DNA of 64,000 nucleotides, from contig CAMEGQ010000002.1 of the NCBI GenBank assembly GCA_945916235.1, positions 4,786-68,785 on the forward strand. The letters are read 5' to 3'. Of the stretch, positions 13,242-38,152 are shown piece after piece (position 1 is the first letter of the stretch; the number at the start of each line of letters is the position of its first letter). Below the pieces are notes generated by a model. The model had not been told where the DNA came from and did no database searches. It saw only the letters and a program-made list of their open reading frames with translations. The translations under genes were made by a program, and so were the position numbers. Origin of the DNA: an uncultured Porphyromonadaceae bacterium (GTDB taxonomy: Bacteria > Bacteroidota > Bacteroidia > Bacteroidales > Muribaculaceae).

Positions 13242-13259
13242 CAAAGCATGACAAAGTTA

Positions 13260-13633: not shown

Positions 13634-13672
13634 CTGATTAATAATATACGATGGGAATCGGTGGGTCTGCGG

Positions 13673-18183: not shown

Positions 18184-18232
18184 CCCGCGCCGCTTACACT
18201 GCTGAAATATTTATCTTAACCCATATAGATCC

Positions 18233-19483: not shown

Positions 19484-19504
19484 TCCAGGCATCCTTTTTC
19501 AGGT

Positions 19505-20539
19505 ATGGAAATACTGTTCGGACTTCTCATCATAGCCGTAGGCGCCTTCTGCCAGTCGAGCTGCTATGTCCCCATCAATAAGATAAAGGATTGGAGCTGG
19601 GAGAGCTACTGGATAGTGCAGGGCGTATTCGCCTGGCTTGTGCTCCCGTTTGTGGGCGCGCTGCTGGCCGTGCCTGCCGGACATTCGCTCTGCGAGCTTT
19701 TCACCGCCGCCAACTCGTTCAATATCCTGATGACGATCGTCTTCGGAGTGCTCTGGGGCATCGGCGGCCTCACCTTCGGCCTCTCGATGCGCTATCTCGG
19801 AGTGGCCCTCGGCCAGTCGATAGCCCTCGGCACCTGCGCCGCGCTGGGCACCATCATGGGCCCTGTGCTCCTCAACGTTTTCTTCCCCGAAAACGATCCG
19901 CTTTCGCAGCTCACCTTCTCGGTGGTGCTCGGAGTGGTGGTCACCCTTATCGGCATCGCCATCATCGGCATCGCCGGAGCCATGAAATCCGCTTCACTCA
20001 GCGATCAGGAGAAGAAGCAGGCTGTCAAAGACTTCAACTTCCCCAAAGGGATATGCATCGCCCTGCTTGCCGGCTTCATGAGCGGCTGCTTCAATGTGGG
20101 GCTGGAGTTCGGCGCCGGCATCAATTTCGGAGATCTGACCGACCCGATGTTCCGCACCCTTCCCGCCACCTTCCTGGTGACGCTCGGCGGCTTCGTGACC
20201 AACGCCGTCTACTGCTTCTATCAGAACACCCGCAATAAGACGTGGGGCGACTATGGAAAGCTGACGGTGCTGGGCCACAATCTGCTTTTCTGCCTTCTGG
20301 CCGGTGCACTCTGGTACAGCCAGTTCTTCGGTCTGGCTCTCGGCAAAGGCTTCCTGACCGGTTCGCCCACGCTGATGACCCTCTCATTCTGCATCCTGAT
20401 GGCCCTTAACGTGGTGTTCTCCAACGTATGGGGCATTATCCTGAAGGAGTGGAAGGGGTGCTCAGGCAAGACCATCGCAGTGCTCATCGCAGGCATCGCG
20501 GTCCTGATAGTGTCTACCTTCCTGCCGCAAACCCTCTGA
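19505..20539 (+). CDS. rhaT: L-rhamnose/H+ symporter
   Basis: 344 aa, the same length as E. coli RhaT. It is a 10-TM DMT-type protein with GAFCQSSCYVPINK...W.SYW. Confidence 0.9.
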   Translation: MEILFGLLIIAVGAFCQSSCYVPINKIKDWSWESYWIVQGVFAWLVLPFVGALLAVPAGHSLCELFTAANSFNILMTIVFGVLWGIGGLTFGLSMRYLGVALGQSIALGTCAALGTIMGPVLLNVFFPENDPLSQLTFSVVLGVVVTLIGIAIIGIAGAMKSASLSDQEKKQAVKDFNFPKGICIALLAGFMSGCFNVGLEFGAGINFGDLTDPMFRTLPATFLVTLGGFVTNAVYCFYQNTRNKTWGDYGKLTVLGHNLLFCLLAGALWYSQFFGLALGKGFLTGSPTLMTLSFCILMALNVVFSNVWGIILKEWKGCSGKTIAVLIAGIAVLIVSTFLPQTL

Positions 20540-20564
20540 AATCAAATGTGTAAATAGTAATAAA

Positions 20565-21380
20565 ATGAAACACAGTATATTAGACAATCGCCCCGGTCTT
20601 GCGAAGCAGGTGATGGATGTGGCCGAAGTGGCCGGCTATCTCTGGCAGAAAGGGTGGGCCGAGCGTAACGGCGGCAACATCACGGTCAATGTCACCGAGC
20701 ATGTCGACGATGAAATCCGCCGTATGCCCGCCATCTCCGAGCCGCGCCCCATCGGCATGACCCTCCCTCACCTGAAGGGGTGCTACTTCTATTGTAAAGG
20801 AACCAACCGCCGTATGCGCGACCTGGCCCGCTGGCCGATGGAGAACGGCTCCGTAATCCGCATTCTCGACGATTGCGCTCACTATGAGATCATTGCCGAC
20901 AATCCCGTGGCTCCCACCTCAGAACTTCCGTCGCATCTGGCTGTCCACAACTACCTCATAGCCAAGGGCTCACCATACAAAGCCTCGGTTCATACCCATC
21001 CCATCGAGCTGGTGGCCATGAGCCATAATCCGGAATTTCTGAAGAAGGATGTGCTCACCCGTCTGCTCTGGTCGATGATACCCGAGACCAAGGCCTTCGC
21101 TCCGCGCGGCCTCGGCATAGTGCCCTATATGCTCCCCTCAAGCGCCGAGCTGGCCGACGCCACCATCCGTACCATCGACGACGATTACGACGTGGTGATG
21201 TGGGAGAAGCATGGCGTATTCGCCGTGGATGCCGATGTAATTTCAGCTTTCGACCAGATCGATGTACTCAACAAGTCGGCCAACATCTACATGTGCGCCC
21301 GCTCGATGGGCTTCGTCCCCGACGGCATGACCGACGCCCAGATGCAGCAGATCACCGACGTCTTCCATCTCCCCAAATAA
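20565..21380 (+). CDS. rhaD: Rhamnulose-1-phosphate aldolase (class II aldolase)
   Basis: 271 aa. KGWAERNGGNITV and PTSELPSHL align with E. coli RhaD KGWDERNGGNLTL and PTSELPAHF. Confidence 0.9.
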   Translation: MKHSILDNRPGLAKQVMDVAEVAGYLWQKGWAERNGGNITVNVTEHVDDEIRRMPAISEPRPIGMTLPHLKGCYFYCKGTNRRMRDLARWPMENGSVIRILDDCAHYEIIADNPVAPTSELPSHLAVHNYLIAKGSPYKASVHTHPIELVAMSHNPEFLKKDVLTRLLWSMIPETKAFAPRGLGIVPYMLPSSAELADATIRTIDDDYDVVMWEKHGVFAVDADVISAFDQIDVLNKSANIYMCARSMGFVPDGMTDAQMQQITDVFHLPK

Positions 21381-21498: not shown

Positions 21499-23691
<2,193 letters not shown>

Positions 23692-23728: not shown

Positions 23729-24304
23729 TCAGAACCAGAGCACGGAGAGGCCGCCGAGGAGCCGGCGCAGCTTGGTCAGGGCGCGGTGGAGTAGATTCAT
23801 CGACGACTGCTCCTTGATGTTGAGCATCAGGGCCAGCTCCTTGTGGGTCAGCCCCTTGACGTAGCGCAGATAGACGGCCATACGCTGGTTGCCGTTCAGG
23901 CGGTTGAAGGCGTTGATTACCTTCTGGCGCTCGTCGATCTCCTCGTCGCTCATCTGCTCGCGGATGGCCGTGATGATAAATTCCTCGCTGATCTCCGAGA
24001 AGGGGAGCTCGTCGAGCGGGAAGTGGGGCTTTACGGTTTTGAGGCGGTCGAATATGATATTTTTCAGCGCTACCAGGAGCCAGGGGCGCACGTATATCAC
24101 ATTCGAGAACAGCCTCGGATTGCAGATGAGTTTGACGAACAGATCCTGAATGCAGTCCTTGATGAAATCCGCATCATTGAAATATTTCAGGCCAAAATTG
24201 AGCATGAGCTCATAGTGGCGCTTGTAAAGCGTCTCTATGGCCTTGGTCTCGCCCCGGGAGGCAAGCCGACAAAGCTCCAGATCGGTCAGCTCCTTATATT
24301 CCAA
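23729..24304 (-). CDS. ECF-type RNA polymerase sigma-70 factor (apparent TTG start)
   Basis: 191 aa. Region 2 is ETLYKRHYELMLNFGLKYFNDADFIKDCIQDLFVKL and region 4 HTH is QRMAVYLRYVKGLTHKELALMLNIKEQSSMNLLHRALTKLR. No in-frame ATG lies upstream of region 2. Confidence 0.8.
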   Translation of the reverse strand: MEYKELTDLELCRLASRGETKAIETLYKRHYELMLNFGLKYFNDADFIKDCIQDLFVKLICNPRLFSNVIYVRPWLLVALKNIIFDRLKTVKPHFPLDELPFSEISEEFIITAIREQMSDEEIDERQKVINAFNRLNGNQRMAVYLRYVKGLTHKELALMLNIKEQSSMNLLHRALTKLRRLLGGLSVLWF

Positions 24305-24376: not shown

Positions 24377-26806
24377 TCAGCGCTTGTTCCATTTGCTGTC
24401 GAGCAGCTTGATGAAGTAGGCGCCTACCACCGAGCGGTTGCTGAATATCTGATGCTCGGGGCGGTCGGTCCAGAACCAGTCGGTCATCGGGACGCGGTCG
24501 ACGGTCTCGTCCATGAACATCCATACGGGATGCACCAGCGCCTTGAAGTCTGCCTCATTGCCGGCCATCGTAGCCGACCATATTATCCAGTCGGTCTTGG
24601 AGTATTTTTCGCGGCTGTCAAGCGGCAGGCCGTAGAGGTTCATCTTCGTCAGATAGTAGGCTGTCTCCTTGTCAAATACTTTCTTCGGGAAAAGATTCCA
24701 GCCGAACAGCTTGTCCCACACCAGATTGTACTTCTGGCTCCATGTGTCGGGACGGTCGAACGTCAGGCGGTAGTGGTCGCCGTCGTCGGCCATCTTCTCC
24801 CACTGCTTCGCCATCTCGGCCGCCTTCTTCATGTATGCTTTGCCGGTCTTTTTATCTCCCTGCATATCAGCCAAGTAGCCATAGGCTGCAATACCCAGAA
24901 TAGCTTTGCCCGAGAGGTTGGCGTTGTGAGCCACATGTCCGGCGAAATCGTCGGTGCAGAGCTGATTCTCCGGATCCAGACCATACTTCTCCAGGTAGTT
25001 GACCCATTTGGTCAGCGTGGCCCAGTGGCGGGCGGCGAAGTCGGCGTTCCCTTCGGCCTTGGCGATGGCGGCTGCCATGATGAGCATGTTGCCGCTCTCC
25101 TCCACAGGCATGTCGCCGCCGTAGTTCTGGCCCAGACCGCGCGGATAGCGGCCGATGTCGTGGGCGGCGAAATCCTTGTCCCAGCTGTCGGAAGCGCAAT
25201 AGTCAAGAATCGGGTTCATCAGCCCCTTGGCCAGCTCCACATTGTAGCAGAGGAACAGCGGCACCGAGGGGTAGGAGAGGTCGACCGTGCCGATGGAGCC
25301 GTTGCTGTTGTTCTCCTTCGAGAGATAGAGCAGCAGCCCTTCGGGAGTCTCGATGAGCTTGTGGGCGGCGAATGTCTGGCGCCATGCCAGAGTGCAGAGG
25401 TCGGCGTATTCCGGTCCGCCGGCGGCTGTGGCAGCCTCGACCATATCCCGGTTGAATTCCGAGCAGCGCTTCATGATTGAGTCGTAATCGCGGGCGGCGA
25501 GCTCAAACTGACGGGCTATCGTTTCCGTCCCCTTGCGGTTCCAGTAGGGGCGGATGGCGCGGCCCATATAGTTGATGGCCTCCACATCGTCGTATCCGGC
25601 CATGACGTACCCCTTGGCCTGAGCCTTGTCGCCAAGATCACGCACGATGGTCAGACGCTTGCCGGCCGTGGAGAAGGTGGTGTTCTTATTGTCGGCGGCC
25701 AGATAGAAATAGCCCCAGTCGATGCGTCGGTCGTCGCCCCACTTCTCGAGTGAGCGCTGACCGACCGTACCGGTGCGCAGCAGGGTCAGGTCGCCGGCTT
25801 TTTCAGCCGATTCCGCGGTAGGCTGGCCCGGATAATCCACTGCAAACAGCGGCGAAGCCTCCAGGCGCAGGCTGAGCTTGTGCGGCTTGCCGTCGAGCGA
25901 GCGCACATCGTAGGAGATGTAGTTCACCGGACGCCCGGCCAGCTCTATGTCGTCGGGGAGGAAGGGGGCAGTGAAAGTGATGTCGAGCGCTACAGGGCCG
26001 CATACGAAGCTGTATTTAGTCTGGGTGGGCATCAGGTCGATGTCGGTCTGCTGTGCCGTGCGCACATAGTCGCTTTTTGCCTGAGGCTGCGCGATGAGAG
26101 CGAAATCTATCACTCCGTAGCCCGTATTGTTCACGGCCTTGGCGGCGATAAGGTTTTTGCCCGGATGGATGGCTGCTGCGGCCTCGGCAGGCAGCTTCAC
26201 CAGACGATGGTCGGCGGGCGATGTAGCCTTCAGAGCCTGTACGCCGTTGATGTAGATGTCAGCTGCATCATCGTATGTAGCCTCCAGCAGCAGGGTGGCG
26301 GGGTCAGTCCCCTCGGGGATGTCGACCCAGCGGCGCACCCAGATATAGGGCGCATCCCAACGTGTGCGGGCGCCGGTCTTGCAGAATTCGTTCTTGATCA
26401 TCACGAACTCCCCGTTCTCGCCGTCGGTGGCGAAGGCGGCCTCACCATTGGTCCAGCTGCTGTCGTCATAGTCGGGCAAAGCCCAGCCTGCGGCAGGCGT
26501 CTCCGTGGTGTAGTTGGCTGACCAACGGCCCCACTCCGAGTTGGGAGCGATGCTCTCGGCTGTGGCAAACTCCTGCCCGAGGAAGCGGTAAGCTACCGAG
26601 TCGACCGTCAGCACTCCCATCAGAGGATGCTCTTTCATGGTCCAGTGGCGCGTGGCGTCGCTGTAGAGCGTGTCGGCACACGACCAAAGATTCACCGACG
26701 GGTCGATGGCAAAAAGCTGATAAGCCGGAGCTCGCAATCCGGTGCGGGCTCCGACTGTAGGGATCATAGCCGTAGCTATGACTAAGGATATGAATAATTT
26801 TTTCAT
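24377..26806 (-). CDS. Glutaminase-A-like putative glycoside hydrolase (DUF4964/DUF5127/DUF4965/DUF1793 architecture)
   Basis: Start set at MKKLFISLVIATAMIP (signal peptide). SKENNSNGSIGTVDLSYPSVPLFL, AAHDIGRYP..GGDMPVEESGNMLIMAAAI and LCTDDFAGHVAHNANLS match my recollection of the GtaA/DUF4965 family. Confidence 0.7.
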   Translation of the reverse strand: MKKLFISLVIATAMIPTVGARTGLRAPAYQLFAIDPSVNLWSCADTLYSDATRHWTMKEHPLMGVLTVDSVAYRFLGQEFATAESIAPNSEWGRWSANYTTETPAAGWALPDYDDSSWTNGEAAFATDGENGEFVMIKNEFCKTGARTRWDAPYIWVRRWVDIPEGTDPATLLLEATYDDAADIYINGVQALKATSPADHRLVKLPAEAAAAIHPGKNLIAAKAVNNTGYGVIDFALIAQPQAKSDYVRTAQQTDIDLMPTQTKYSFVCGPVALDITFTAPFLPDDIELAGRPVNYISYDVRSLDGKPHKLSLRLEASPLFAVDYPGQPTAESAEKAGDLTLLRTGTVGQRSLEKWGDDRRIDWGYFYLAADNKNTTFSTAGKRLTIVRDLGDKAQAKGYVMAGYDDVEAINYMGRAIRPYWNRKGTETIARQFELAARDYDSIMKRCSEFNRDMVEAATAAGGPEYADLCTLAWRQTFAAHKLIETPEGLLLYLSKENNSNGSIGTVDLSYPSVPLFLCYNVELAKGLMNPILDYCASDSWDKDFAAHDIGRYPRGLGQNYGGDMPVEESGNMLIMAAAIAKAEGNADFAARHWATLTKWVNYLEKYGLDPENQLCTDDFAGHVAHNANLSGKAILGIAAYGYLADMQGDKKTGKAYMKKAAEMAKQWEKMADDGDHYRLTFDRPDTWSQKYNLVWDKLFGWNLFPKKVFDKETAYYLTKMNLYGLPLDSREKYSKTDWIIWSATMAGNEADFKALVHPVWMFMDETVDRVPMTDWFWTDRPEHQIFSNRSVVGAYFIKLLDSKWNKR

Positions 26807-26870
26807 TTGCTGGATGTTATTTGACTGGTAAGGCCTGACGTCCTGTGCCGTGACCGGCATGATGAAAGGT

Positions 26871-28361
26871 TTATTTGGCGGGTACCACCGAGAGAATCGT
26901 GTTGGGAGCCAGCGTGAGCGTCACTGCTCCGTCGGTTACCTTGATTTTCTGAGCTGTCCCTTCTCCGTCGGGCTCCACGGGGGTAACCATGACGGCTTTC
27001 ACGTCGCTCCACCCCTTGGGAAGCTTCCAGGTGCGGTTCTGGTAGCCGTCCTGCGAGTAGGCCATGATTTCGCGGCCGTCCTGACGCCATACTACAGGGA
27101 AGAATACGTCGTTCCCCTGGCGCAGCAGCGTGTCGCCCTGCTTCACTGTCTTGGCTTTCCAGTCGGTTACCACTGAGTCGGAGTAGTAGACGCGCTCGTT
27201 GGCCTCGTCGTAGTTTTCCAGCTTCAGGGTGTTGTAGAAGAGATAGGGTAGGGTGCGGGTGGCCACGCCCAGTTTGGCGCGGTTCCAGGCCTCGGCCCAG
27301 TTCTTGTCTTTATGGAGGTCAACGAAGTTGAAATCGTCTTCTGCCTGATAGTTGTCGCCGAAGAGGAATGTCTCTTTCAGCCAGAGCTTGCCGAATTTGC
27401 CCTCCTGACCGCCGGCGAGCAGCGATGCGGGAATCTTGGCGCGCTCGGCGCCGCTGAGGTCGAGCCACCATGCGGCGGGGCTCAGGCCGATCATCGGGTC
27501 GCAGCGCTGGCCGTTGTGAATGAATTCGATGGTGACGTCCACACCCTTGTTGCGCATGTAGCGCAGCATCTTGCGCATGGCCTCCTCCTGCTGGGCCATA
27601 TTCTGGCCGTTCCCGGGGCTCATGCGGGCATAGTAGGCGTCGCAGTGCATCGTGCCGGCGTCTTTAAGCTCCACCAGCTCGATCAGGCCGTCGAGGCGCT
27701 TCTGCAGGAATCCTTTCTGCCATTCGTTGGCGATGTTGACGTCGTACATCGGCTGCCCGTTGAACACGGCGCGCGTGATCAGGTTCCCGTCGGTGTCGCG
27801 GCAGATGAAGTCGTTTTCGGAATACTCCTTCCAGAGCGGCGAGTCGGGCTCGGCGTCCTGAACCAGCACATGCACGCTGACTGTGGTGTTGTATTTCTTG
27901 GCCTCTTCGCGCAGCCAGCGGTAGCTGTCGCGCGCTGTGGCATCCTGCGGACGCTTCAGAGCCTCGTTGAATCGGTCGAAAGCCGGATATTTGCAGTCGT
28001 GGCCTTCAAACTGCCACCCCACGAGGTAGACAATCTTGGGCACTCCGCGGCTGATGCGGTCAAGCCCTTTGATCATCTCCAGAGCCTCTTCGAAGTTGAT
28101 GCCGACGTTCGAGCCTCCCTTCTGGTCGGGGCGCGCCATGAAGAATTTGTGCATCATTAGCTTGTCGTACTGATGCATGTAGGGGCGCTCGGGCTTCATA
28201 GTGGCGGTGTAGTCGTAGGGAGCGCCCGAGATGGTGTCGTTCCAGTCGGGCAGGGCGTTGAATCGCTTTTGGGCTTCTGCGGCGTCGAAAGCCTGAGCCG
28301 TCAGCCCTCCCAGAAGGAGAGCCGACGCTGAGGCGATGAGTAAGTGTGCTATCTTTGACAT
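26871..28361 (-). CDS. Secreted putative glycosidase, GH101/GH129-like (endo-alpha-N-acetylgalactosaminidase-family-like) domain, paralog 1
   Basis: 496 aa with an SPI signal peptide. Blocks shared with 28371-29903 and with the C-terminus of 44059-47832 are ERPYMH.YD, KIVYLVGWQFEGHDCKYPAF, YNTTVSVHV, HCDAYYAR, GVDVTIEF and WWLD. The family name rests on recollection of the VGWQ..GHD motif and is unverified. Confidence 0.55.
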   Translation of the reverse strand: MSKIAHLLIASASALLLGGLTAQAFDAAEAQKRFNALPDWNDTISGAPYDYTATMKPERPYMHQYDKLMMHKFFMARPDQKGGSNVGINFEEALEMIKGLDRISRGVPKIVYLVGWQFEGHDCKYPAFDRFNEALKRPQDATARDSYRWLREEAKKYNTTVSVHVLVQDAEPDSPLWKEYSENDFICRDTDGNLITRAVFNGQPMYDVNIANEWQKGFLQKRLDGLIELVELKDAGTMHCDAYYARMSPGNGQNMAQQEEAMRKMLRYMRNKGVDVTIEFIHNGQRCDPMIGLSPAAWWLDLSGAERAKIPASLLAGGQEGKFGKLWLKETFLFGDNYQAEDDFNFVDLHKDKNWAEAWNRAKLGVATRTLPYLFYNTLKLENYDEANERVYYSDSVVTDWKAKTVKQGDTLLRQGNDVFFPVVWRQDGREIMAYSQDGYQNRTWKLPKGWSDVKAVMVTPVEPDGEGTAQKIKVTDGAVTLTLAPNTILSVVPAK

Positions 28362-28370
28362 TGTATGTGC

Positions 28371-29903
28371 TTAGTTGGGAATTTGGATGGAGAGCATTTC
28401 GTTGGGTTCGAGCGAGAGCTGGATGGTGCCGTTGGTCACGCTGACCTCCTGAGGCTCGCCCAGGCCGCTTTCGCTGATGGTATAGACGGTCACATGGTCT
28501 GCGCCGGCCCAGTCGGCGGGCAGCGTCCACGTCTTGCGGTTGTAGCCGTTGACCGAGTAAGCCATTATCTCCTTATGGTCGGTGATCCACAGCAGCGGGA
28601 AGAAGATATTGTTGTGGTCGCGCAGGGTCACTCCGTTTTGGGTTACGGTCTGATTCTTGTAGTCAGACTTCAGCCCGTCGGAGTAGGTGACTGTCTGCTT
28701 GTCATTGTCGTATGCTTCCACCTTGTGACGGTTGAAATACATGTAGGGGATAGTGTACAGGCAGATCCCCTGACGTGCTTTCTTGAACGAGTTTTCAATA
28801 TTCTTCGACACATTGTTGTCGATATAGTTGAAGTCGTTCTCAAGCTGGTAGTTGTCGCCGAAGAGGAAGGCTTCCTGTTCCCAGAAGCTGTTGAACTTGC
28901 CCGACTTGCCGCCTGCGATGAGCGTGGCGGGGAGTTTGGCGCGCTGCTCGCAGTTGATGTCGAGCCACCATGAGGCCGGGTTAAGGCCGATCATCGGGTC
29001 GATGCGCTCGTTGTTGTCAAGGAATTCTATGGTGACGTCGACCTCCTTGTCGCGCATGTAGCGCAGCATCTTGCGCATCACTACCTCGATCTGCTCTACG
29101 GTGGTGCCGTGGTACGGGCTTTCGCGGGCATAGAAGGCGTCGCAGTGGAGGGTCTTGGTCTTATCCAGACGTACCAGGTCGGCAAGCTCCGTCAGGCGCT
29201 TCTGGAGCATCCCCTTCTGCCATTCCTTTACGATGTTGACATTGTACATCGGCAGGCCGTTGAGGGTACCGCGGGTGTAGAATGTGCCGGAAGCGGTCTT
29301 GCAGAGGAAGTCGTTCTTGACATAGGTGTGCCACAGCGGCGAGTTCTGCTCGGCATCGTGCACATTGATGTGGACCGACACGGTGGTGTTGTATTTCTCG
29401 GCCTCATCCTGAAGCCAGTAGAAGCTGTCTTTGGCCGTGGCGTCCTCCGGGCGTTTCAGAGCCTCGTTGAATTCGTGGAATGCGGGATATTTCCAGTCGT
29501 GGCCGGCATACTGCCATCCTACCAGGTATACGATCTTATGCACTCCGCGGGTGAGGTTGTCGATGCGCTTGATGATTTCCAGCGCATCCTCCATGGTCAG
29601 GTTGACATTGGGGGTATCGTCTGATTTGGGGCGCGCCATGAACAGCTTCATCATCATCGACTGCGAATAGTCGTGCATATACGGGCGCTCAGGCTCCATA
29701 GTGACGCTGTAGTCGTAGACATCGCCGTTGACCTGGTCGTCCCAGTCGGGCAGAGGCGTCACCTCTTCCATCATGGGGATTTCCTCCTCGTCGGAGCAGG
29801 AAGTGAGCACCATCGGGGCAGCTGCCGCCATGAAGGCGGCTGCTGTCAGGGCTGCTTTTCCGATGATTGCAGATTTTATATCGATTTTCATTTTGAAAGT
29901 CAT
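28371..29903 (-). CDS. Lipoprotein, putative glycosidase with GH101/GH129-like domain, paralog 2
   Basis: 510 aa with lipobox VLTSC and the same conserved blocks (KIVYLVGWQYAGHDWKYPAF, HCDAFYAR, DVTIEF, WWLD). It lies in tandem with paralog 1, 9 nt apart. Confidence 0.55.
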   Translation of the reverse strand: MTFKMKIDIKSAIIGKAALTAAAFMAAAAPMVLTSCSDEEEIPMMEEVTPLPDWDDQVNGDVYDYSVTMEPERPYMHDYSQSMMMKLFMARPKSDDTPNVNLTMEDALEIIKRIDNLTRGVHKIVYLVGWQYAGHDWKYPAFHEFNEALKRPEDATAKDSFYWLQDEAEKYNTTVSVHINVHDAEQNSPLWHTYVKNDFLCKTASGTFYTRGTLNGLPMYNVNIVKEWQKGMLQKRLTELADLVRLDKTKTLHCDAFYARESPYHGTTVEQIEVVMRKMLRYMRDKEVDVTIEFLDNNERIDPMIGLNPASWWLDINCEQRAKLPATLIAGGKSGKFNSFWEQEAFLFGDNYQLENDFNYIDNNVSKNIENSFKKARQGICLYTIPYMYFNRHKVEAYDNDKQTVTYSDGLKSDYKNQTVTQNGVTLRDHNNIFFPLLWITDHKEIMAYSVNGYNRKTWTLPADWAGADHVTVYTISESGLGEPQEVSVTNGTIQLSLEPNEMLSIQIPN

Positions 29904-29912
29904 TTGATTGGA

Positions 29913-31478
29913 TTAGATTGCATCGCCGTCGATTGCCGACACTTTGCTTATATATACCTCGCTGATCTTGGCGCGGTTGGCCAGCGACTGGCTTTTCGGG
30001 AAGGGGATAAGCACCACCTTGACGTACCGCCCGCGGTATTGCTGCGAAAGGATGCTCTGCGGAACATCGACCATGTAGGTGCCGCAGCATGCCGATGTCT
30101 GGGTCAGGCCTGTGACAGTGGCTACCTTGATCCATTCCACATGGCTGTCGAATTCCTTAAGCTTGGCGTGGACGGCCAGATAGTCGTCGGAAAGCAGGGC
30201 GTCTGTGCCGAAGTTCCCTTTACTGAACAGGAGGTTGTATTCCTTGGTCGATAGCCCGGGATCGAGCGAGGTGTCCTCGGTGACGTAGAATTCTACGGCC
30301 TGAGGGTTGGTATCGTACCATCCGGCGCCCCAGCCTACCTGCACTCCGAAGCGGCCTGCCATGAAGCGGCTTCCGACGTCGAGCACCACGTAGGGCTGTC
30401 CCAGATCCTGGTAGTAGTCCCAGCCTTCGGTGATATGCGAATACCATCCGTTGCTGTTCTCAACGCCGTCGATGATGTTGCTGAACGTACCGTAGGGCAT
30501 CGATATCGAGCCGTAAGCCACGCTCCACAGGCTCTTTTCGTTCATGTCAGTGTAGGTGTATTCGTGGAAGTTGCACGAAATCAGCATTTCGCTGCGCGAC
30601 ACATTGGCGCCGTCAGTCTTCGAGATGAGCTTCAGCGGGAGCACGAGCACACCTTTCTCCGAAGCCTCGCGTATCTTGTCGATATTGAAGGTGACGGGAT
30701 GGGAATAGAATTCCGTAGCGGCGGCCACCACAGCCTCCGTCTCCATCGAGAACATCTCCGGCGTCAGGGCCACATAGTTGACACCCTGCGGTATGCTGTA
30801 GTTTTCGTCAAGATATTCCTGAGTCATCTCCTCCAAGCGCACGTCTACGTCGATGTCGCCGCTCTTGCTGACGATGAATTCGCTGGTATAGGTGGATTCA
30901 TTGTCGGGGAGCTTCACTTTGGCGCTGGCCACATCGAAGCTGACCACGGCGGGAGTGACGTTGCACTGTAGGATCACCACGTCTTTGTCGGTCTTCACCG
31001 TTTTCGAAGCCGAAGCGATGCGCACCGGAAGCACCAGGCTTCGGCCTGCGTTTTCGGGCTTCTCAAGTTCGGCATAGATCTTCGGAGCGTTGAATATCAC
31101 ATGCACCGATTTGCCGCTTTCGCCGGCGGCGATCTTCAGGTGGTAGTCGGTGATGCGGTACATCGACGCGGGGATTACCTTATAGTTCGTCCCCTGCTTG
31201 TCGTTGTAGTTTTCATCGACCCATGCCTGATCGGGAGCCTCGACCATTACGTCGACCACTTCCTCAGTGTGCAGCCCTCCTTTGAGCACCGCCACTTCGC
31301 AGTCGTACTGCCGGTCGGCGATGGCCATGTTCACATCCTGCACGCCGGTGTCCTTCAGCGAGATGATGGTGTAGTAGCTGTCGGGCACGATCTCGTCGTA
31401 ATTGCCGTCGATGTCGCCACACCCTGACATGCCCGCCATTGCGGCCAGGCCTACAAGTATATTGAGATATCTTTTCAT
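29913..31478 (-). CDS. SusD-adjacent surface lipoprotein: DUF1735-like N-terminal domains plus C-terminal discoidin-like module (type I)
   Basis: 521 aa with lipobox MSGC. The YYTIISLKDTGVQ...VLKGG pattern is typical of DUF1735/BT_3987-like domains. The C-terminal NEKSLWSVAYGS...YVVLDVG...AVEFYVTED...GRYVKVVLIPF...AKISEVYI is an F5/8-C-like module. Confidence 0.7.
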   Translation of the reverse strand: MKRYLNILVGLAAMAGMSGCGDIDGNYDEIVPDSYYTIISLKDTGVQDVNMAIADRQYDCEVAVLKGGLHTEEVVDVMVEAPDQAWVDENYNDKQGTNYKVIPASMYRITDYHLKIAAGESGKSVHVIFNAPKIYAELEKPENAGRSLVLPVRIASASKTVKTDKDVVILQCNVTPAVVSFDVASAKVKLPDNESTYTSEFIVSKSGDIDVDVRLEEMTQEYLDENYSIPQGVNYVALTPEMFSMETEAVVAAATEFYSHPVTFNIDKIREASEKGVLVLPLKLISKTDGANVSRSEMLISCNFHEYTYTDMNEKSLWSVAYGSISMPYGTFSNIIDGVENSNGWYSHITEGWDYYQDLGQPYVVLDVGSRFMAGRFGVQVGWGAGWYDTNPQAVEFYVTEDTSLDPGLSTKEYNLLFSKGNFGTDALLSDDYLAVHAKLKEFDSHVEWIKVATVTGLTQTSACCGTYMVDVPQSILSQQYRGRYVKVVLIPFPKSQSLANRAKISEVYISKVSAIDGDAI

Positions 31479-31496: not shown

Positions 31497-33440
31497 TTAA
31501 TAACCGGGTGCCTGAATCAGCTGCGGGTTGCTGTAGATTTCGCTTGACGGCACAGGCAGCAGATACATGCGGTCGCTCCAGCTGAAGGGCTGGCTCACCT
31601 TGGTGCGCACGTTGAATTCCTCGAATGTCGGGTCAACCTTGCTCAGGGCGTTCAGGCCTTCGCGGGCGCCGCTCTTGAGCATCTGCGGAGCCGTCATCCA
31701 GCGGCGCAGGTCGTAGTAGCGGTGGCCTTCTCCCCACAGCTCGATGAAGCGCTCGTTGCGGATCCAGTCGCGCAGGCTCATCATCGAGAAGTCGGCGGTG
31801 GTGATGTCGCGCACGAAGTTGTGGCTGCGCACCTCGTTGAGGGCTGCGAGTGCAGCCTGGGTGTTGCCCAGAGCTTCCTCACATTCGGCCAGGTTGAGAT
31901 ACAGCTCCGACAGATGGATCAGGCGCACGCCGATCATGCGGGCGTTGAGCGACCCGTCGGGACGCCAGTTGATGTTGGGCTGTGTCCATTTCTTGGTGTA
32001 GTAGCCCGTCACATTGTTATCCCATACGTAGCGCGTGGGGTTGTAGCCCTGCTCGGCAGAGCTCTTGGTGTCGATAATCAGCGGAGCGCCGTTTTTGATC
32101 AGCGAGGAGTATTCGTCGCCGTCGAACGACAGATTGGCGTAGAAGCGCGGCTCGCGCTTGTCGTTGAGGTTGATGATGTCGGTGCGCCCGTTGTAGCCGG
32201 CCGATTCCAGCCAGTTGGAGCGCGGAAGTTCGGGGTCATCTTCGGGGAGAACGCCGTTGCGCGTGTAGAAATGCTCTACCGTATAGAGGCAGGGGGCGAG
32301 GGCTGTCACGCCGCCATACTGGCCGCCGCTGTTGCTCGTGCCGATATTGTGGGGATACATATCGGCCTGCCAGAAGATGTACGTGTCGGGCTTGGGAATG
32401 ACGCTCCAGATCACTTCGCGGTTGCCTTCGGGCTCGGTGGTGTTGTTGGCATAGCGCACTTTCATCACCTTACGCTTGAAGTCATCGTCCACTCCGGGGA
32501 TGTCGGGCAGAGGCACATCTTCCGACTGGCGCTGCACTTCGGCTGCCTCCAGCGTGTAGAATGAGCGGCCGCCTGCGCCGAGGGCGAATTCGAGGGCTTC
32601 CTGACATGCTTTGCGCGCACGCTCCCACTTTTCGCGGCTGTACTGGGTGCTTACCAGCTCATGGCCGTAGCCCGGAGTCTCGTAGTTGGTGTTGCGCCAG
32701 CTCGTGTTGGGGAAGGAGCCGTTCCAAAGAGGCGAGGCGGCATACAGGAGCACACGGCCCTTCAGTGCCTTGCAGATGGTCGATGTGGCGCGGCCTATCT
32801 CCGAGGTCTCCACTGTGGCGGGAAGCGCCGCTGCGGCCTCGTCGAGCCAGTTGACGATTGTGTTCACGCAATAGTCGAAATGGCTGCGGCCGGGGAATTC
32901 ATCTTTCGACACTGAGGTGTCGTAATAGTGGTCGATGATGGGGATAGGACCGTAGCATTCCAGCAGGCGGAAGTGGTAGTAGGCGCGAAGGAATTTCACT
33001 TCGGCCATCCAGCGCTTGCGGTCGGCGGCTGTCACCTCCTTGGGGGTAGTGGAGTTGAGGATCTGGTCAAACAGGTTCACCTGGCCCAGAGCGCTGTATG
33101 TATCGTTCCACGGCAGGCGGAAATAAGCGTGGTTGGAGCTGTATGTGGCCGACAGCTGATCCCAGGCTGCCACCTGGCCCGTACGGCCCCATGCCTGCGG
33201 GCAGACGAATTCGTCGGTCGACGATTCGTGGGCGCCCAGCGAGCCGAAACCCTGCATTTCTTCTGTTGTGGCGTAGCAGCTGTAGAGGAATTCGAGTGCA
33301 TCCTGCTTGTCCTTCATCGTGTCGGGGATGTCGGCGGTTTCAGGAGGCACCACATCAAGATAGTCGCAGCCGGTGGCGCCCATAGTGAGCACCAGGGACG
33401 AGGCTAAAAACCGGATATATGATTTAATCTGTGATTTCAT
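31497..33440 (-). CDS. SusD/RagB-family outer-membrane nutrient-binding lipoprotein
   Basis: 647 aa with lipobox ATGC followed by DYLDVVPPE. The TPR-like region (AEVKFLRAYYHFRLLECYG) and the C-terminal NPQLIQAPGY are typical of SusD. Confidence 0.92.
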   Translation of the reverse strand: MKSQIKSYIRFLASSLVLTMGATGCDYLDVVPPETADIPDTMKDKQDALEFLYSCYATTEEMQGFGSLGAHESSTDEFVCPQAWGRTGQVAAWDQLSATYSSNHAYFRLPWNDTYSALGQVNLFDQILNSTTPKEVTAADRKRWMAEVKFLRAYYHFRLLECYGPIPIIDHYYDTSVSKDEFPGRSHFDYCVNTIVNWLDEAAAALPATVETSEIGRATSTICKALKGRVLLYAASPLWNGSFPNTSWRNTNYETPGYGHELVSTQYSREKWERARKACQEALEFALGAGGRSFYTLEAAEVQRQSEDVPLPDIPGVDDDFKRKVMKVRYANNTTEPEGNREVIWSVIPKPDTYIFWQADMYPHNIGTSNSGGQYGGVTALAPCLYTVEHFYTRNGVLPEDDPELPRSNWLESAGYNGRTDIINLNDKREPRFYANLSFDGDEYSSLIKNGAPLIIDTKSSAEQGYNPTRYVWDNNVTGYYTKKWTQPNINWRPDGSLNARMIGVRLIHLSELYLNLAECEEALGNTQAALAALNEVRSHNFVRDITTADFSMMSLRDWIRNERFIELWGEGHRYYDLRRWMTAPQMLKSGAREGLNALSKVDPTFEEFNVRTKVSQPFSWSDRMYLLPVPSSEIYSNPQLIQAPGY

Positions 33441-33478: not shown

Positions 33479-36400
33479 TCAGAAGGTCACCTGTGCGCCG
33501 ATATTGAACGTGCGCGAGAGAGGATAGGAATAATAGTTGAGCTCGGGATCCCAGAGCTTGAACGGGCCCCAGACTGCCAGGTTGTCGCCCGAGAAGTAGA
33601 CGCGGACATAGGGGAAGGTGTAGCCGATCTCCAGTGTCTTGAAGCGGATGAACGAGCCGTTGCGCATCCAGTAGGTGCTCGGCACCATATTGTTCTGCAC
33701 CTCGGTGGGCGTGGTGCCCAGGCGCGGATAGGCTGCGTCGAAGTTGTTGCGTCCTACCTGGAAATAATCCTCGGCGATGAACTTCATAAGGTTGCGGTCC
33801 TGATGGAAGTCGTCGGCGCAGAATGAGGCTATGCCGTCGATCATGATCGTGCGGTTGGCCGACCCGCTGAAGAACACACCGAAATCCCATTTGCGCCATA
33901 CGGCGTTCAGACCCAGACCGAACTGGATGCGCGGCTGGCGTCCGAATTCCGAAATCATCACCTTGTCGTCCTCGGTGATCATGCCATCGCCGTTGACGTC
34001 GCGGTATTTGATATCACCCACCATCGGGTTGCCGCCGAGCGGGGTCTGGCTGGGCGAGTTCTTGATGTCCTCCTCGCTGCGGAAGAGGCCTTCGGCGATG
34101 TAGCCGTAGGTGGCGTTCAGCGGCTTGCCCGTCTGCGTCTGCCATACGTAGGGGTAGTCGGGCTCGTCGTTGTAGATGTATTTGTTCTTGGTGTAGGTGA
34201 AGTTGGCGCGCATATCCACCGAGAGGTCTTCCTTGAGCTGCTTGCGCCAGTTGACGCTCAGCTCGATACCCTGGTTGTCGACCTTGCCGACATTGGCCCA
34301 GGGCGTTGACGAGGCGTAGCCGAGCATCGTGGGCCAGGAGCTGCGCTTCTGGAGGATGCGGTCGCGGCGGTCGTGGAAGTAGTCGAATGTGATATCAATC
34401 TGGTTGAACAGCGACACATCCACACCGATGTCGAACTTCTTGGCTCTTTCCCATCCGGCGTTGGCCACGGCGTATTTCAGGAAGGCCGGACCGGAAAGCC
34501 CCACGTTGGAGTTAGAACCGACGAAAGGACCGGTGATGAACGACTGGCCGCCGTTGAGCGACACCTCGTTGCGGTAGAGGAAGTGGGCGGCGCCTGCGAG
34601 CAGACCTGTCTCGTCAGATCCGACCAGACCGTAGCTGCCGCGGATCTTCAGGTGGTCGATGTAGGGGTTAAGGCTCTCCCACCAGCTTTCGTTGCTGGCT
34701 ACCCATCCCAGCGATACGGCCGGGAAGAACTCGAAGCGGTGGCCTTTGGCCAGACGCTCCGTACCGTTGTAGCCGAAGTTCATCTCCACCAGGTAGCGGC
34801 GGGCGTAGTCGTAGGTGAAGCGGCCCGAGAAGCCCTGGTTGCGGTTGGGAAGCACATCGCTGCGGAACTCCCTCATCATGTACATAAGCATGGCCGACAC
34901 ATTGTGCACCTTGTTGAACTGGCGGTTGTAGTTCAGTCGGGCGTCGAAATAGAATGTGCGGTCGTTGTAGCGCTGGATGGCGCCCTGTGCGATATAGTCC
35001 GTACCTTTCTGCAGCGACTCAAGCTGGAAGTAGGTAGGGTCGGAGGGGTCGTATGTATTGTCCATCACGCGGTAGTAGTAAGGCTCGATGGTGTTGGTGT
35101 AGGTCGAATAAGCGTAGCTCTTCATGTTCACCAGAGCCGTCACGCTCAGCCCTTCGGTCAGGAAGTCGAGCTTCTGAGTGGCGCGGAGCGAGGCGTTGAT
35201 GGTCGAATAGTTTTCTTCAGCATATGAGCTCATCATGTGAGCGTAGGGGTTCACATTCAGTCGGCTCGCTGTCTTGATCGAGTTACCGAAGCGGATGTGA
35301 TTGTCCCCTTCCTCCGACGGGTAATATGCCGGGAAGCTGACAGGGTTGGCATTGTATACATCGTCGAAGATGGTGGAGAGAGAGGTGCCCGGGCCCTTGC
35401 GGTTGCCAAACTGGGCGTTGATGTGCAGATCCACAGTAGTAGTGGAGGTCGGTTTGTAGCAGATATTGTTCTGGAAGATGTAGTTCCAGTCGTTGATGTT
35501 GGCATCGAACGAGTATGTCTTGGGCACATTCAGAATACCCGAGTCGTGGTTCACCTGCAGGCCCATGTAGTAGGTCACTTTCGAACCGCCGCCCGTGAGG
35601 TTCACGTTGGCGCGCTGGTTGTAGCTCCATTTGTTGAACATCAGATCATACCAGTCCACATTCGGATACACGTAGGGGTTCACTCCGCTGCGCGTGGCGT
35701 CGATGGTGGCCTGCGAGAAGCGCGGGGTGGCTGCCGGGTTGCGCGCCAGCTGGGCTTCGTTGTAGACTTCCATCCATGTCGGGCCGTCGACGTATTCCAC
35801 ACGGTTGCGCGGCTGCGAGAACGAGGCCTCCAGCGATACGTTGATTTTGGCGCGGGTGTTCTCCATACCTTTCTTGGTGGTGATGAGCATCACGCCGTTG
35901 GCGCCGCGGGCACCGTAGATGGCCGTGGCCGAGGCGTCTTTCAGAATCGAGAAGCTCTCGATCGACTCGGCCGGCAGGCGGTTGAGGTCGGCGCTGGAGA
36001 TTTCGATATCGTCAAGAAGAATCAGAGGAGTGGCGCGGCCGCCGAATGTGCCGACGCCGCGGATGTAGAATTCGCTGACGGCTCCCGGCTCGCCCGAGGT
36101 GGTCGATGAGATCACACCGGCAAGCTTACCGGCAAAGTTCGACGTCAGCGACGATGAAGGGGCCTTAAGCACATCGCCCTTGATGGCGGCGATAGAGCCG
36201 GTCACCGAGATCTTGGCCTGCGTACCGGCGCCGACCACTACCACTTCTGCCAGCTCGTTGCCCGTGGGCGACAGTTTCACGTCGAGCACACCCAGATCGC
36301 CTACCGAAAGCGTCTGCGGCGTGTAGCCGATGTAGCTGATTACCACTTCCCCGTTGTCGGGCACGTCGATGGTGTAGTTACCGTCGATATCTGACGAGGT

Positions 36401-36874
36401 GCCTCCCCCCTTCGAACCTTTTACCACCACGGTGGCCCCGATCAGGGGCTCGCCGGTGGTAGCATCGGTGATGGCGCCTCGCAGCGAGTGGGTCTTTTTA
36501 CCCGATTTCTTTTCTGTTTTTGCGGGCTCCTTTTTGGCCGGAGCTTCCGGACGAAGCGAAATCTGGCGGCCGTTGACCGACCATCCGATCCCGTTGTCCG
36601 TAAACACCTGGTTGAGCACATCGGCCAGGGGCTTCTGAACGGCGTTGACCGTCACCTTGCGGTTCAGGTCCAGCACTCCGCTCTGATAGAAGAAAATCAT
36701 ATTCGATTCCTTCTCGATTATCTTTATCGCCTCGCTGACCGGTCGGTTGTCGACTTTCACCGTGACGAGCTGGTCCTGTGCGCTCAGGCACACGAGGCTC
36801 CCCGCAGCGACGAGCAACAAGGCGGCAAACCATCGGCGGCATTCCGCGACGGATTTTTTGACAAGCTGATTCAT
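33479..36874 (-). CDS. SusC-type TonB-dependent transporter with N-terminal STN signalling domain
   Basis: Start set at MNQLVKKS. The STN domain is VTVKVDNRPVSEAIKIIEKESNMIFFY..VLNQVF and a CarboxypepD_reg-like domain (LRGAITDATTGEPLIGATVVVKG) follows. The plug carries a TonB box (AEVVVVGAGTQ). The beta-barrel ends ..RTFNIGAQVTF. Confidence 0.92.
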   Translation of the reverse strand: MNQLVKKSVAECRRWFAALLLVAAGSLVCLSAQDQLVTVKVDNRPVSEAIKIIEKESNMIFFYQSGVLDLNRKVTVNAVQKPLADVLNQVFTDNGIGWSVNGRQISLRPEAPAKKEPAKTEKKSGKKTHSLRGAITDATTGEPLIGATVVVKGSKGGGTSSDIDGNYTIDVPDNGEVVISYIGYTPQTLSVGDLGVLDVKLSPTGNELAEVVVVGAGTQAKISVTGSIAAIKGDVLKAPSSSLTSNFAGKLAGVISSTTSGEPGAVSEFYIRGVGTFGGRATPLILLDDIEISSADLNRLPAESIESFSILKDASATAIYGARGANGVMLITTKKGMENTRAKINVSLEASFSQPRNRVEYVDGPTWMEVYNEAQLARNPAATPRFSQATIDATRSGVNPYVYPNVDWYDLMFNKWSYNQRANVNLTGGGSKVTYYMGLQVNHDSGILNVPKTYSFDANINDWNYIFQNNICYKPTSTTTVDLHINAQFGNRKGPGTSLSTIFDDVYNANPVSFPAYYPSEEGDNHIRFGNSIKTASRLNVNPYAHMMSSYAEENYSTINASLRATQKLDFLTEGLSVTALVNMKSYAYSTYTNTIEPYYYRVMDNTYDPSDPTYFQLESLQKGTDYIAQGAIQRYNDRTFYFDARLNYNRQFNKVHNVSAMLMYMMREFRSDVLPNRNQGFSGRFTYDYARRYLVEMNFGYNGTERLAKGHRFEFFPAVSLGWVASNESWWESLNPYIDHLKIRGSYGLVGSDETGLLAGAAHFLYRNEVSLNGGQSFITGPFVGSNSNVGLSGPAFLKYAVANAGWERAKKFDIGVDVSLFNQIDITFDYFHDRRDRILQKRSSWPTMLGYASSTPWANVGKVDNQGIELSVNWRKQLKEDLSVDMRANFTYTKNKYIYNDEPDYPYVWQTQTGKPLNATYGYIAEGLFRSEEDIKNSPSQTPLGGNPMVGDIKYRDVNGDGMITEDDKVMISEFGRQPRIQFGLGLNAVWRKWDFGVFFSGSANRTIMIDGIASFCADDFHQDRNLMKFIAEDYFQVGRNNFDAAYPRLGTTPTEVQNNMVPSTYWMRNGSFIRFKTLEIGYTFPYVRVYFSGDNLAVWGPFKLWDPELNYYSYPLSRTFNIGAQVTF

Positions 36875-37036
36875 TAGCAGGAAAATATGTGATTCATGAT
36901 TCGTCCCGGCCATTCTGCAGCGCGGGCTTCAGCGCCGGTCGGGTGTGTTAAGGTTTCGATTTAAAAATCTGATCCGGTAGGTCGGTTCGATTCGCAATCT
37001 GTTGTGTTGTCAGTAAGGTCGGTAGATTATGCAGGA

Positions 37037-38110: not shown

Positions 38111-38152
38111 AATCGTTCGGTTTTCTTGCCCTCTCAAGATGCAGTGAATATA

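Follow-up and report, generated by a model that had tools for sequence, protein, structure and literature searches.

The best described relatives of the enzymes treated here belong to the glycoside hydrolase families GH101 and GH129. GH101 is represented by EngBF from B. longum (2zxq) and SpGH101 from S. pneumoniae (3ecq, 5a55-5a5a); such enzymes are prized as tools for analysing O-glycans, and they serve as markers of mucin foraging. Classical members are cell-wall-anchored mucin enzymes of 1100-2000 aa in which a barrel followed by a beta-sandwich (PF12905, PF17451) is accompanied by GH101_N, galactose-mutarotase-like, domain-5 and C-terminal CBM domains. NagBb from Bifidobacterium bifidum (GH129; 5wzn-5wzr) has the same superfamily fold; it is small, free of the GH101 accessory domains, equipped with an extra N-terminal beta-sandwich, and intracellular. 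GH101 carries a DDE triad and EGHD and V/IHV/IN motifs (PMC11861894); the substrate-contact residues considered below are those listed in PMC10949244.

Compact GH101 relatives in the window

The window, i.e., the whole stretch of 64,000 nucleotides that was analysed, contains three GH101-like copies, all on the minus strand. Paralog a (26871-28361) has 496 aa and paralog b (28371-29903) 510 aa. The third copy forms the C-terminal part (aa 787-1257, positions 44062-45474) of a fusion protein of 1257 aa (44059-47832). Pairwise identities are 53-61%. In a three-way alignment with a mean column identity of 71% over about 470 residues, the 496-aa copy shows 53% identity to either of the other two; BLASTP gives 61% between the 510-aa copy and the fused one. 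This similarity is far above chance and, judged by sequence, the copies are true paralogs, as had been claimed from their shared identical blocks. For each copy, other genomes encode closer orthologs, at 70-72% identity. A regex search recovered all motifs quoted in the original prediction in all three copies, with one trivial exception: the 510-aa copy has EVDVTIEF for GVDVT[IV]EF.

A relationship to GH101 and GH129 and a TIM barrel layout had been suspected, and a Pfam search and a comparison with crystal structures proposed. Both checks bear the suspicion out. The three copies score 32.4 (496 aa), 37.3 (510 aa) and 40.1 bits (fused) with PF12905, a small margin over the gathering score of 25 bits. 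PF17451 reaches 25.5 bits in the 510-aa copy and 23.5 bits in the fused copy (cut-off 25), and the Pfam search did not detect it in the 496-aa copy. Against PDB sequences, a profile built from 36 family members matched GH101 structures alone (5a55/3ecq with E 5e-15, EngBF with 5e-13); GH129 chains were absent at E up to 1, i.e., NagBb has no detectable sequence similarity to the profile, and the central catalytic stretch by itself found no sequence match in the PDB. The AF2 model (pLDDT 92, pTM 0.88) shows a (beta/alpha)8 barrel joined to a beta-sandwich; D255 ends strand 251-255 and E293 lies near the end of strand 289-294 (numbering of the 510-aa copy). Foldseek placed EngBF/SpGH101 first (E 1e-22, TMq 0.62, about 15% identity) and GH129 NagBb second (E 3e-10, TMq 0.51), followed by GH13 and GH36.

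As had been remarked, the short proteins are far smaller than GH101 enzymes. Of the six or seven domains of classical GH101, their mature length of about 470 aa accommodates just two, the barrel and the beta-sandwich behind it. Pfam matches to GH101_N, the galactose-mutarotase-like domain 2, domain 5 and the C-terminal CBM32 are absent from all three paralogs. A fragmented SpGH101-like gene in another locus (L085), in contrast, has GH101_N, Gal_mutarotas_3 and GH101_dom-5. The short proteins are GH101-related, yet they stand outside classical GH101. They are members of a family of 315 clusters at 50% identity (E below 1e-30), which ranges from gut Bacteroidales, including Bacteroides ovatus, to soil Firmicutes and Actinomycetota. 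We found no paper, NCBIfam model, solved structure or biochemical data for any member of this short family.

Catalytic and substrate-contact residues

An hhalign alignment with the catalytic and C-terminal domain of SpGH101 (probability 98.7%, E 2.4e-16, 373 columns) pairs D136 with D658, H178 with H694, D255 with the nucleophile D764 and E293 with the acid/base E796; the sequence of the 5a59 E796Q mutant confirmed which residue is E796. The DDE triad is kept in all three paralogs, at D122 (27996-27998), D241 (27639-27641) and E279 (27525-27527) in paralog a, at D136 (29496-29498), D255 (29139-29141) and E293 (29025-29027) in paralog b, and at D877 (45202-45204), D996 (44845-44847) and E1034 (44731-44733) in the fused copy. 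The original prediction had proposed the Asp of DA(F/Y)YAR and the Glu of VT(I/V)EF as a catalytic pair about 38 residues apart. They fall on D764 and E796, and the spacing, with codons verified, is exactly 38 in each copy. None of 94 relatives, drawn from about 80 genomes, deviates at D136, H178, D255 or E293; these include the Asp and Glu whose loss had been named beforehand as the outcome which would speak against the pair. (E/A)GHD is present in all three paralogs, and the second motif reads VSVHIN in the 510-aa copy and VSVHVL and VSVHVT in the other two. With the nucleophile, the acid/base and the third Asp at the same positions as in GH101, and the EGHD and VH(I/V)N motifs in common, a retaining mechanism is to be expected.

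A different picture emerges for the residues which in GH101 bind Gal-beta1,3-GalNAc, i.e., H661, N696 and the Trp lid GW(D/N)WLD. The position of H661 is occupied by Tyr in 90 of 94 members. That of N696 is variable (N 77, L 16, T 1) and differs even within the window, with Leu in the 496-aa, N in the 510-aa and Thr in the fused copy. The Trp lid is unrecognisable; the region aligns to ..NG.P.Y.VN..(K/N)EW, with no GWxW. Therefore, GalNAc specificity is not to be assumed. Since the catalytic residues of GH101 are kept and the sugar-binding ones are not all kept, a different alpha-linked glycan is probably cut.

Gene order, export and binding modules

Paralogs a and b are part of a gene cluster on the minus strand, identified by domain search: SusC with an STN domain (33479-36913), SusD (31497-33440), an SGBP-like protein with a BT_3987-like N-terminal domain and DUF4973 (29913-31478), paralog b, paralog a, and a GtaA-like six-hairpin protein (24377-26860; DUF4964/DUF5127/GtaA_6_Hairpin) which has no PDB relative by sequence. 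The intervening gaps are 9-38 bp, and SusC through the GtaA-like gene apparently form one operon. An ECF sigma-70 factor (23729-24304) and its partner, a FecR-type anti-sigma factor (37037-38137), are encoded on the same strand, as is a SusB-type GH97 alpha-glucosidase (21499-23670; E = 0 to SusB 2d73/2jka) at the downstream end. Upstream are a GH78 alpha-L-rhamnosidase (47847-50504) and, from domain and sequence searches, a YgjK-like GH63/MGH1-like enzyme (50547-51935) and a trehalase-like GH37 enzyme (52001-53392), all on the minus strand. Divergent from these, on the plus strand (16759-21380), are genes of L-rhamnose catabolism (FGGY kinase, RhaA, RhaT, class II aldolase). Adjacent SusC/SusD genes, glycoside hydrolases and the ECF sigma/FecR pair mark the cluster as a PUL, and it is syntenic in B. 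ovatus and Muribaculaceae. Sialidase, fucosidase, GH20, GH2 and GH16 are absent from the window PUL. Such SusC/SusD PULs, and ABC-transporter loci of soil bacteria, are the setting of the short proteins, in contrast to GH101, and in this window they are linked to rhamnose use.

The gene order is conserved. SusC-SusD-SGBP, lipoprotein copy, second copy and GtaA-like gene follow each other in the window and in six loci from Muribaculaceae, Rikenellaceae and Cryptobacteroides (L004, L005, L007, L008, L010, L011); the second copy lacks a lipobox wherever its start is readable. At least six related PULs of Bacteroidales have the pair of a lipoprotein and a signal-peptide gene directly after SusC/SusD/SGBP. 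L006 has the same GH101-like pair, the B. ovatus locus (L001) a single copy, and the GtaA-like gene is directly downstream of the pair in 9 Bacteroidales loci. GH78, GH63-like and GH37-like genes are all co-located in L008 and L010; GH78 additionally occurs in L011 and GH63-like in L005 and L007. Only part of the family has the rhamnose link, as GH78 occurs in 5 loci out of about 80, and the B. ovatus PUL has no GH78, GH63 or GH37. Neighbours in other phyla are mostly galacto-active: GH110-like (13 loci), GH95 (7), GH36, GH123 and GH35 (6 each), GH20 and GH27 with NPCBM (5 each), and also GH109.

The three copies had been assigned to three export routes, and the N-termini, inspected by eye and not by a dedicated prediction tool, agree. 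Paralog b has a lipobox, LTSC, followed by the acidic SDEEE, and groups with the lipoprotein orthologs of L004, L005 and L007; it is a probable surface lipoprotein. The leader of paralog a (..TAQA|FD) fits signal peptidase I, and the protein is probably periplasmic. In the 1257-aa fusion, ATLA|D suggests signal peptidase I (signal peptide at 47650-47832); a lipobox and a T9SS C-terminal domain are both missing from the fusion, which makes a surface location doubtful. The predicted export sets the short proteins apart from the intracellular NagBb.

Ahead of its GH101-like part, the fusion carries three tandem modules of about 235-250 aa (45457-47649, minus strand; aa 62-310, 311-549 and 550-792), internal repeats which are 54-63% identical. 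Read originally as lectin modules, they are supported as such at the level of the fold, CBM32 / F5-8 type C. An AF2 model of moderate confidence (pLDDT 77, pTM 0.82) matched CBM32 modules in Foldseek (E 1e-6 to 1e-5, TMt 0.53-0.71), the C-terminal domain of BT_0411 and the SusE-like BT2857; the Pfam match to F5_F8_type_C (PF00754) is weak and below threshold (E 0.007-0.025). Nine copies of the module exist in the window, all on the minus strand. Besides the fusion, they are found in a 779-aa protein (40173-42512) which consists of three modules without a catalytic domain and has no Pfam match, at the end (aa 322-554) of a 555-aa Mfa/fimbrillin-like protein (38315-39982) kept in L004-L011, and, as divergent copies, in a 274-aa protein (42534-43358; aa 75-269) and in the SGBP (aa 310-521). 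Judged by the model, the module appears to share the beta-sandwich discoidin fold of the CBM32 of C. perfringens NanJ (2v72), the GH89 CBM32-5 (4a44) and the C-terminal domain of BT_0411 (3hnm), and like CBM32 it is found on glycosidases and on surface proteins of Bacteroides. In contrast to the approximately 140 aa of CBM32 it has about 235 aa, among them a helical insertion and a long loop modelled with low confidence, and it is 8-14% identical to its best structural matches.

Proposed role and alternative readings

We consider it likely that the three genes represent a minimal two-domain branch of the GH101/GH129 superfamily, retaining alpha-glycosidases which act as signature enzymes of an ECF-sigma/anti-sigma-controlled SusC/SusD PUL. 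Most likely they would operate by double displacement, with the Asp of T-x-H-x-D-A-(F/Y) as nucleophile and the Glu of D-V-T-x-E as acid/base, and the sugar would be held in the -1 subsite by the G-H-D Asp and the S-V-H His. The lipoprotein copy, perhaps together with the fused copy and its CBM32-like modules, may attack the intact glycan outside the cell, and the signal-peptide copy may cut imported fragments in the periplasm. The GH78 rhamnosidase and the GtaA-like, GH63-like, GH37-like and GH97 exo-glycosidases would then finish degradation, and freed rhamnose would feed the neighbouring rha genes. Sequential processing across compartments, and a key role of these enzymes in the locus, had been suggested before; both would agree with normal PUL logic. 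As substrate, our best guess is an alpha-linked, probably galacto-configured residue (Gal or GalNAc) within a non-mucin heteroglycan which here also contains rhamnose. The accessory enzymes in the window are of rhamnose and gluco type and suit a substrate of gluco configuration no less than one of galacto configuration.

Tentatively, we go one step further: the few hundred relatives might constitute a new GH family, a sister of GH101 and GH129, which neither releases core-1 O-glycans nor hydrolyses the Tn antigen. An endo alpha-glycosidase is one possibility: at the cell surface it would open a glycoconjugate of microbial or plant origin that contains rhamnose, possibly in partnership with a new CBM32-related binding module and an uncharacterised GtaA-like six-hairpin enzyme. 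The family is a solid lead for enzyme discovery and no conceptual surprise. It holds the position of lead enzyme in a conserved PUL, and one of its carriers, B. ovatus, is tractable. The activity, once found, would give the whole PUL type a function and would probably lead to a new CBM and to a new family or subfamily in CAZy; it might also supply a small alpha-glycosidase scaffold (about 50 kDa). Should the branch prove to have another specificity, surveys of mucin degradation in metagenomes would be misled by the automatic NCBI name, 'endo-alpha-N-acetylgalactosaminidase family protein'.

Among the alternatives, the one that survives best, unlikely as it is, has the enzymes cut alpha-gluco linkages in a rhamnose/glucose heteroglycan in the manner of the GH13 clan, as alpha-glucanase, alpha-glucosidase or transglycosidase; a rhamnose-glucose polysaccharide of Gram-positive cell walls or a bacterial exopolysaccharide would be examples of targets. 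The rank of GH13 behind GH101 and GH129 in Foldseek, the company of GH97, GH63-like, GH37-like and GH78 enzymes in the window, and the recurrence of the last three in L008 and L010 point this way. Yet the commonest neighbours across phyla are galacto-active rather than gluco-active, the Asp of GHD and the His of SVH, which contact GalNAc in SpGH101, are invariant, and the B. ovatus PUL does without GH78, GH63 and GH37.

Rather improbable are exo-acting alpha-N-acetylgalactosaminidases or alpha-galactosidases of GH129 type which trim terminal alpha-Gal(NAc) residues one at a time. NagBb ranks second among the structural matches, neighbours in other loci are galacto-active, and the proteins are small and single-module, as exo-acting enzymes often are. 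Against this stand the missing GH129 match at the sequence level, the redundancy with GH27, GH36, GH109 or GH110 alpha-Gal(NAc)-ases already present in many loci, and the conserved surface-lipoprotein copy in the first slot after the SGBP, which usually belongs to the endo-acting enzyme of a PUL.

We have little faith in the reading closest to the NCBI name, i.e., genuine endo-alpha-N-acetylgalactosaminidases which release the core-1 disaccharide from mucin-type O-glycoproteins and merely lack the GH101 accessory domains. It would accommodate the PF12905 scores, the preserved triad and motifs, and the resemblance of the CBM32-like modules to Gal- and Tn-binding CBM32s; ECF-sigma/anti-sigma control and BT_3987-like SGBPs, both found here, are typical of glycoprotein-glycan PULs. 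It conflicts, however, with the altered H661, N696 and Trp lid positions, with the 15% identity to GH101, and with a PUL which has GH78 and rhamnose catabolism genes in place of a sialidase, fucosidase, GH20, GH2 or GH16; rhamnose is not known from mammalian glycans. Also, members of the family are frequent in soil Paenibacillus, Actinomycetota, Acidobacteriota and Chitinophaga.

That one or more copies are catalytically dead glycan-binding proteins would suit a locus rich in binding modules, and inactive GH-like SGBPs are often found in PULs, but it is most improbable given that all three copies, like every one of the 94 relatives, keep the four residues at the positions of D136, H178, D255 and E293.

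Three paralogs of a compact GH101-superfamily glycosidase

ORF listing and translation place three GH101-like genes on the minus strand: a signal-peptide copy of 496 aa at 26871-28361, a lipoprotein of 510 aa at 28371-29903 and, at 44059-47832, a protein of 1257 aa in which the GH101-like region is fused to an N-terminal extension. The two short proteins were aligned with the final ~470 residues of the 1257-aa protein. Each of the other copies is 53% identical to the 496-aa copy (mean column identity 71%), and the 510-aa copy shares 61% identity with aa 787-1257 (window 44062-45474) at the C-terminal end of the long protein. This confirms the original prediction of three paralogs sharing long identical blocks. 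All of the motifs quoted with it are present in the three copies, the sole deviation being EVDVTIEF instead of GVDVTIEF in the 510-aa copy.

All three proteins match PF12905 (Glyco_hydro_101) with 32-40 bits at a gathering score of 25. PF17451, the C-terminal beta-sandwich of GH101 (cut-off 25 bits), scores 25.5 in the 510-aa copy and 23.5, just under, in the fused copy. A single-sequence search of the PDB returned only weak matches to EngBF, the GH101 enzyme of Bifidobacterium longum. With a profile of 36 family members SpGH101 from S. pneumoniae (E 5e-15) and EngBF (5e-13) were recovered and no match beyond these; in particular GH129 was absent. The confident AlphaFold2 model of the 510-aa protein (pLDDT 92, pTM 0.88) has strands alternating with helices and, after them, a C-terminal domain made up of beta structure only. 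In a Foldseek search of the PDB the top hits are EngBF and SpGH101 (E ~1e-22, query-normalised TM 0.62, identity 14-17%), with the GH129 enzyme NagBb from Bifidobacterium bifidum second (E 3e-10, TM 0.51), ahead of GH13 amylases and GH36 enzymes. The resemblance to the GH101/GH129 clan that the original prediction named was therefore correct. Clearly GH101, not GH129, is the nearer relative; neither the PDB profile search nor Foldseek found a solved structure nearer than GH101. The paralog set is real, ancient and conserved, and it represents a compact GH101-superfamily glycosidase. None of the three proteins has an NCBIfam model, and public records name such sequences 'endo-alpha-N-acetylgalactosaminidase family protein' or 'hypothetical protein'. 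We found no paper characterising the short family or this type of polysaccharide utilisation locus (PUL), Naumoff's GHL/GH101-subfamily papers, which possibly list the group bioinformatically, being outside the comparison.

Catalytic residues and departures from classical GH101

A profile of the central catalytic stretch alone (aa 200-345) found no GH101 in the PDB, only two chance-level matches; therefore the residue mapping was taken from hhalign. Searching for homologs with a 107-aa piece of SpGH101 yielded gene fragments only, and the SpGH101 catalytic region was rebuilt from a frameshifted metagenomic gene copy corrected against PDB alignments. In these, the mutant 5a59 (E796Q) has RFAIQW in place of the wild-type RFAIEW, which fixes the position of E796; D764 is located 32 residues upstream, within FIYVDVW. 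Between the family alignment and the rebuilt segment hhalign aligned 373 columns (probability 98.7%, E 2.4e-16). In the numbering of the 510-aa copy, D136 (GHD), H178 (SVHIN), D255 (HCDAF) and E293 (VTIEF) pair with D658, H694, D764 and E796 of SpGH101, respectively. H135, D136, H178, W228, D255, D289 and E293 are invariant in 94 family members from ~80 genomes, and the codons for the catalytic positions were verified in all three window genes. Because of this mapping and invariance the Asp and Glu proposed as a catalytic pair can be equated with the nucleophile and acid/base positions of GH101. A loss of these residues in close orthologs had been named as one observation that would speak against this; 94 of 94 members keep both. 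From here one would naturally infer a retaining double-displacement mechanism of an alpha-glycosidase, for which homology gives good support. That the copies are inactive binding proteins was rejected on the conservation of the catalytic residues.

Compared with GH101, the short proteins retain only the barrel and the adjoining beta-sandwich. Pfam detected no N-terminal GH101 domains, no domain 5 and no C-terminal CBMs in the three proteins, whereas a genuine metagenomic GH101 gene searched for comparison does give such matches. SpGH101 contacts its substrate directly through six residues, D658, H661, H694, N696, D764 and E796 (PMC10949244), of which four are conserved in the short family. In place of H661, 90 of 94 members have Tyr. 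At the position of N696 the window copies differ: the lipoprotein has Asn, the signal-peptide protein Leu and the fusion Thr. Across the family, Asn occurs here in 77 members, Leu in 16 and Thr in one. The Trp lid motif described for GH101 (PMC11861894) is not recognisable in the region aligned by hhalign. The machinery of the -1 subsite is therefore kept, whereas the determinants of Gal-beta1,3-GalNAc recognition are not. As judged from the alignments, then, the GH101 catalytic triad is intact while substrate-recognition residues have diverged. On sequence grounds we would not file the short proteins as endo-alpha-N-acetylgalactosaminidases, and GH101 matches in Bacteroidales should be taken for mucin degradation only with caution.

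The gene cluster and its binding module

The GH101-like genes belong to one long minus-strand cluster. In the order of transcription it comprises a GH37-like, a GH63/YgjK-like and a GH78 rhamnosidase gene, the 1257-aa fusion, a small protein with a T9SS tail, a 274-aa protein, a 779-aa protein, an Mfa-like protein, a FecR anti-sigma factor, SusC with an STN domain, SusD, a BT_3987-like surface glycan-binding protein (SGBP), the GH101-like lipoprotein, the signal-peptide copy, a GtaA-like six-hairpin protein, an ECF sigma factor and a SusB-type GH97. The gaps from SusC through the GtaA-like gene measure 9-38 bp. A complete rhamnose catabolism operon (kinase, RhaA, RhaT, aldolase; 16759-21380, plus strand) adjoins the cluster in divergent orientation. 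Beyond it, at 10560-15091 on the minus strand, are genes for UxaC glucuronate isomerase, an MFS transporter and an endonuclease/exonuclease/phosphatase-family protein. The small ORF (43358-43861, minus; 167 aa), in which the T9SS C-terminal sorting domain TIGR04183 scores 28 bits, shares one base with the start of the 274-aa ORF; the related loci yielded no homolog of it.

In the 1257-aa protein the first 800 residues contain three repeats of ~235-250 aa, mutually 54-63% identical (45457-47649). In total the window has nine copies of this module in five different proteins, all on the minus strand: three more in the 779-aa ORF (40176-42350), one that ends the Mfa-like protein (38318-39031), and two more distant ones (26-29% identity), of which one ends the SGBP (29916-30566) and the other lies in the 274-aa ORF (42537-43157). 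The module likewise forms the C-terminal end of the SGBP in L001 and L004-L012, which are syntenic PULs, and of the Mfa-like protein in L004-L011. Pfam F5/8 type C matches are sub-threshold only, and NCBIfam has no model for the module-bearing proteins. Foldseek relates the AlphaFold2 model of the module (pLDDT 77) to CBM32 modules, SusE-like BT2857 and the C-terminal domain of BT_0411, with E ~1e-6. Because of the CBM32 matches the 'lectin modules' postulated for the fused protein are supported at fold level. This looks like the dedicated substrate-binding module of the PUL, and it may be a new CBM family.

For the GtaA-like protein (24377-26860, minus; DUF4964/DUF5127/GtaA_6_Hairpin) a sequence search gave no relative in the PDB, and NCBIfam lacks a model of it. 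In nine Bacteroidales loci its gene is always 3' of the GH101-like gene or genes; the Bacteroides ovatus counterpart is at 11504-13612 of locus L001. Evidence for glycosidase activity in this family is weak, i.e., probe labelling and low beta-galactosidase activity of a Streptomyces homolog (PMC9668830).

Relatives and possible substrates

The B. ovatus ortholog, 48% identical, occurs on ~600 contigs. Its syntenic PUL (L001) encodes FecR, SusC, SusD, SGBP, a 703-aa protein, the GH101-like and GtaA-like proteins and a GH97. The 703-aa protein (L001 7862-9973), between SGBP and GH101-like gene, has no Pfam match and no counterpart in the window. The window GH97 (21499-23670, minus) is very close to SusB-type alpha-glucosidases (E = 0 to PDB 2d73/2jka) and only 25% identical to that of B. 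ovatus. Because of this low identity the two are not orthologous partners of the GH101-like family, and GH97 was rejected as a conserved partner. GH78, GH63-like and GH37-like genes are absent from the B. ovatus locus.

The tandem pair is also present in Muribaculaceae, Rikenellaceae and Cryptobacteroides loci (L004-L008, L010, L011); a search of plasmid DNA with it found nothing. In the related loci the first gene encodes a lipoprotein whose Cys is followed by acidic residues, and the second lacks a lipobox where the start is readable (L004, L008, L010). In a neighbour-joining tree each of the two window tandem genes clusters with the genes at its own position in other genomes rather than with its neighbour, and the fused copy is placed as the sister group of the lipoproteins. 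This grouping by position argues that the tandem duplication is old and has been maintained, as would be expected if the copies differ in role. L008 and L010 carry GH78, GH63-like and GH37-like genes together with the pair; of these genes, L011 has GH78, and L005 and L007 have the GH63-like one. We infer that the GH101-like enzymes are the lead activity of the PUL and that the copies are split between compartments.

A scan of a genome collection yielded 454 relatives from Bacteroidales, Paenibacillus and other Bacillota, Actinomycetota, Acidobacteriota, Chloroflexota and others. An exhaustive HMM search gave 315 clusters at 50% identity (E < 1e-30), many within larger multidomain proteins of up to 2283 aa. 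In at least one of them, P0164 (927 aa), the profile matches two separate stretches, which may be two catalytic modules in one chain. Outside Bacteroidales, the GH101-like genes lie in ABC-transporter loci. Their commonest neighbours are GH110-like (13 loci), GH95 (7), GH36, GH123 and GH35 (6 each), further GH20 and GH27 with NPCBM (5 each) and, in one Paenibacillus locus, GH109. Taken over the whole family, these neighbours suggest galacto-configured substrates. In contrast, the accessory enzymes of the window point to rhamnose and alpha-glucose instead. Pectin, RG-I and RG-II were set aside because no polysaccharide lyase, GH28, GH105 or GH106 was found in the cluster. The compact GH101-like enzymes are a good target for enzyme discovery.

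GH110-like, GH109, GH123, GH35, GH95, GH36 and GH27 genes flank the family in L082 (Paenibacillus), L020 and the Parabacteroides loci L025, L029, L030 and L047. In Paenibacillus two or three metallophosphoesterase/phosphodiesterase genes also flank the GH101-like gene, and in the Parabacteroides loci two or three GH101-like copies surround a GH123 gene.
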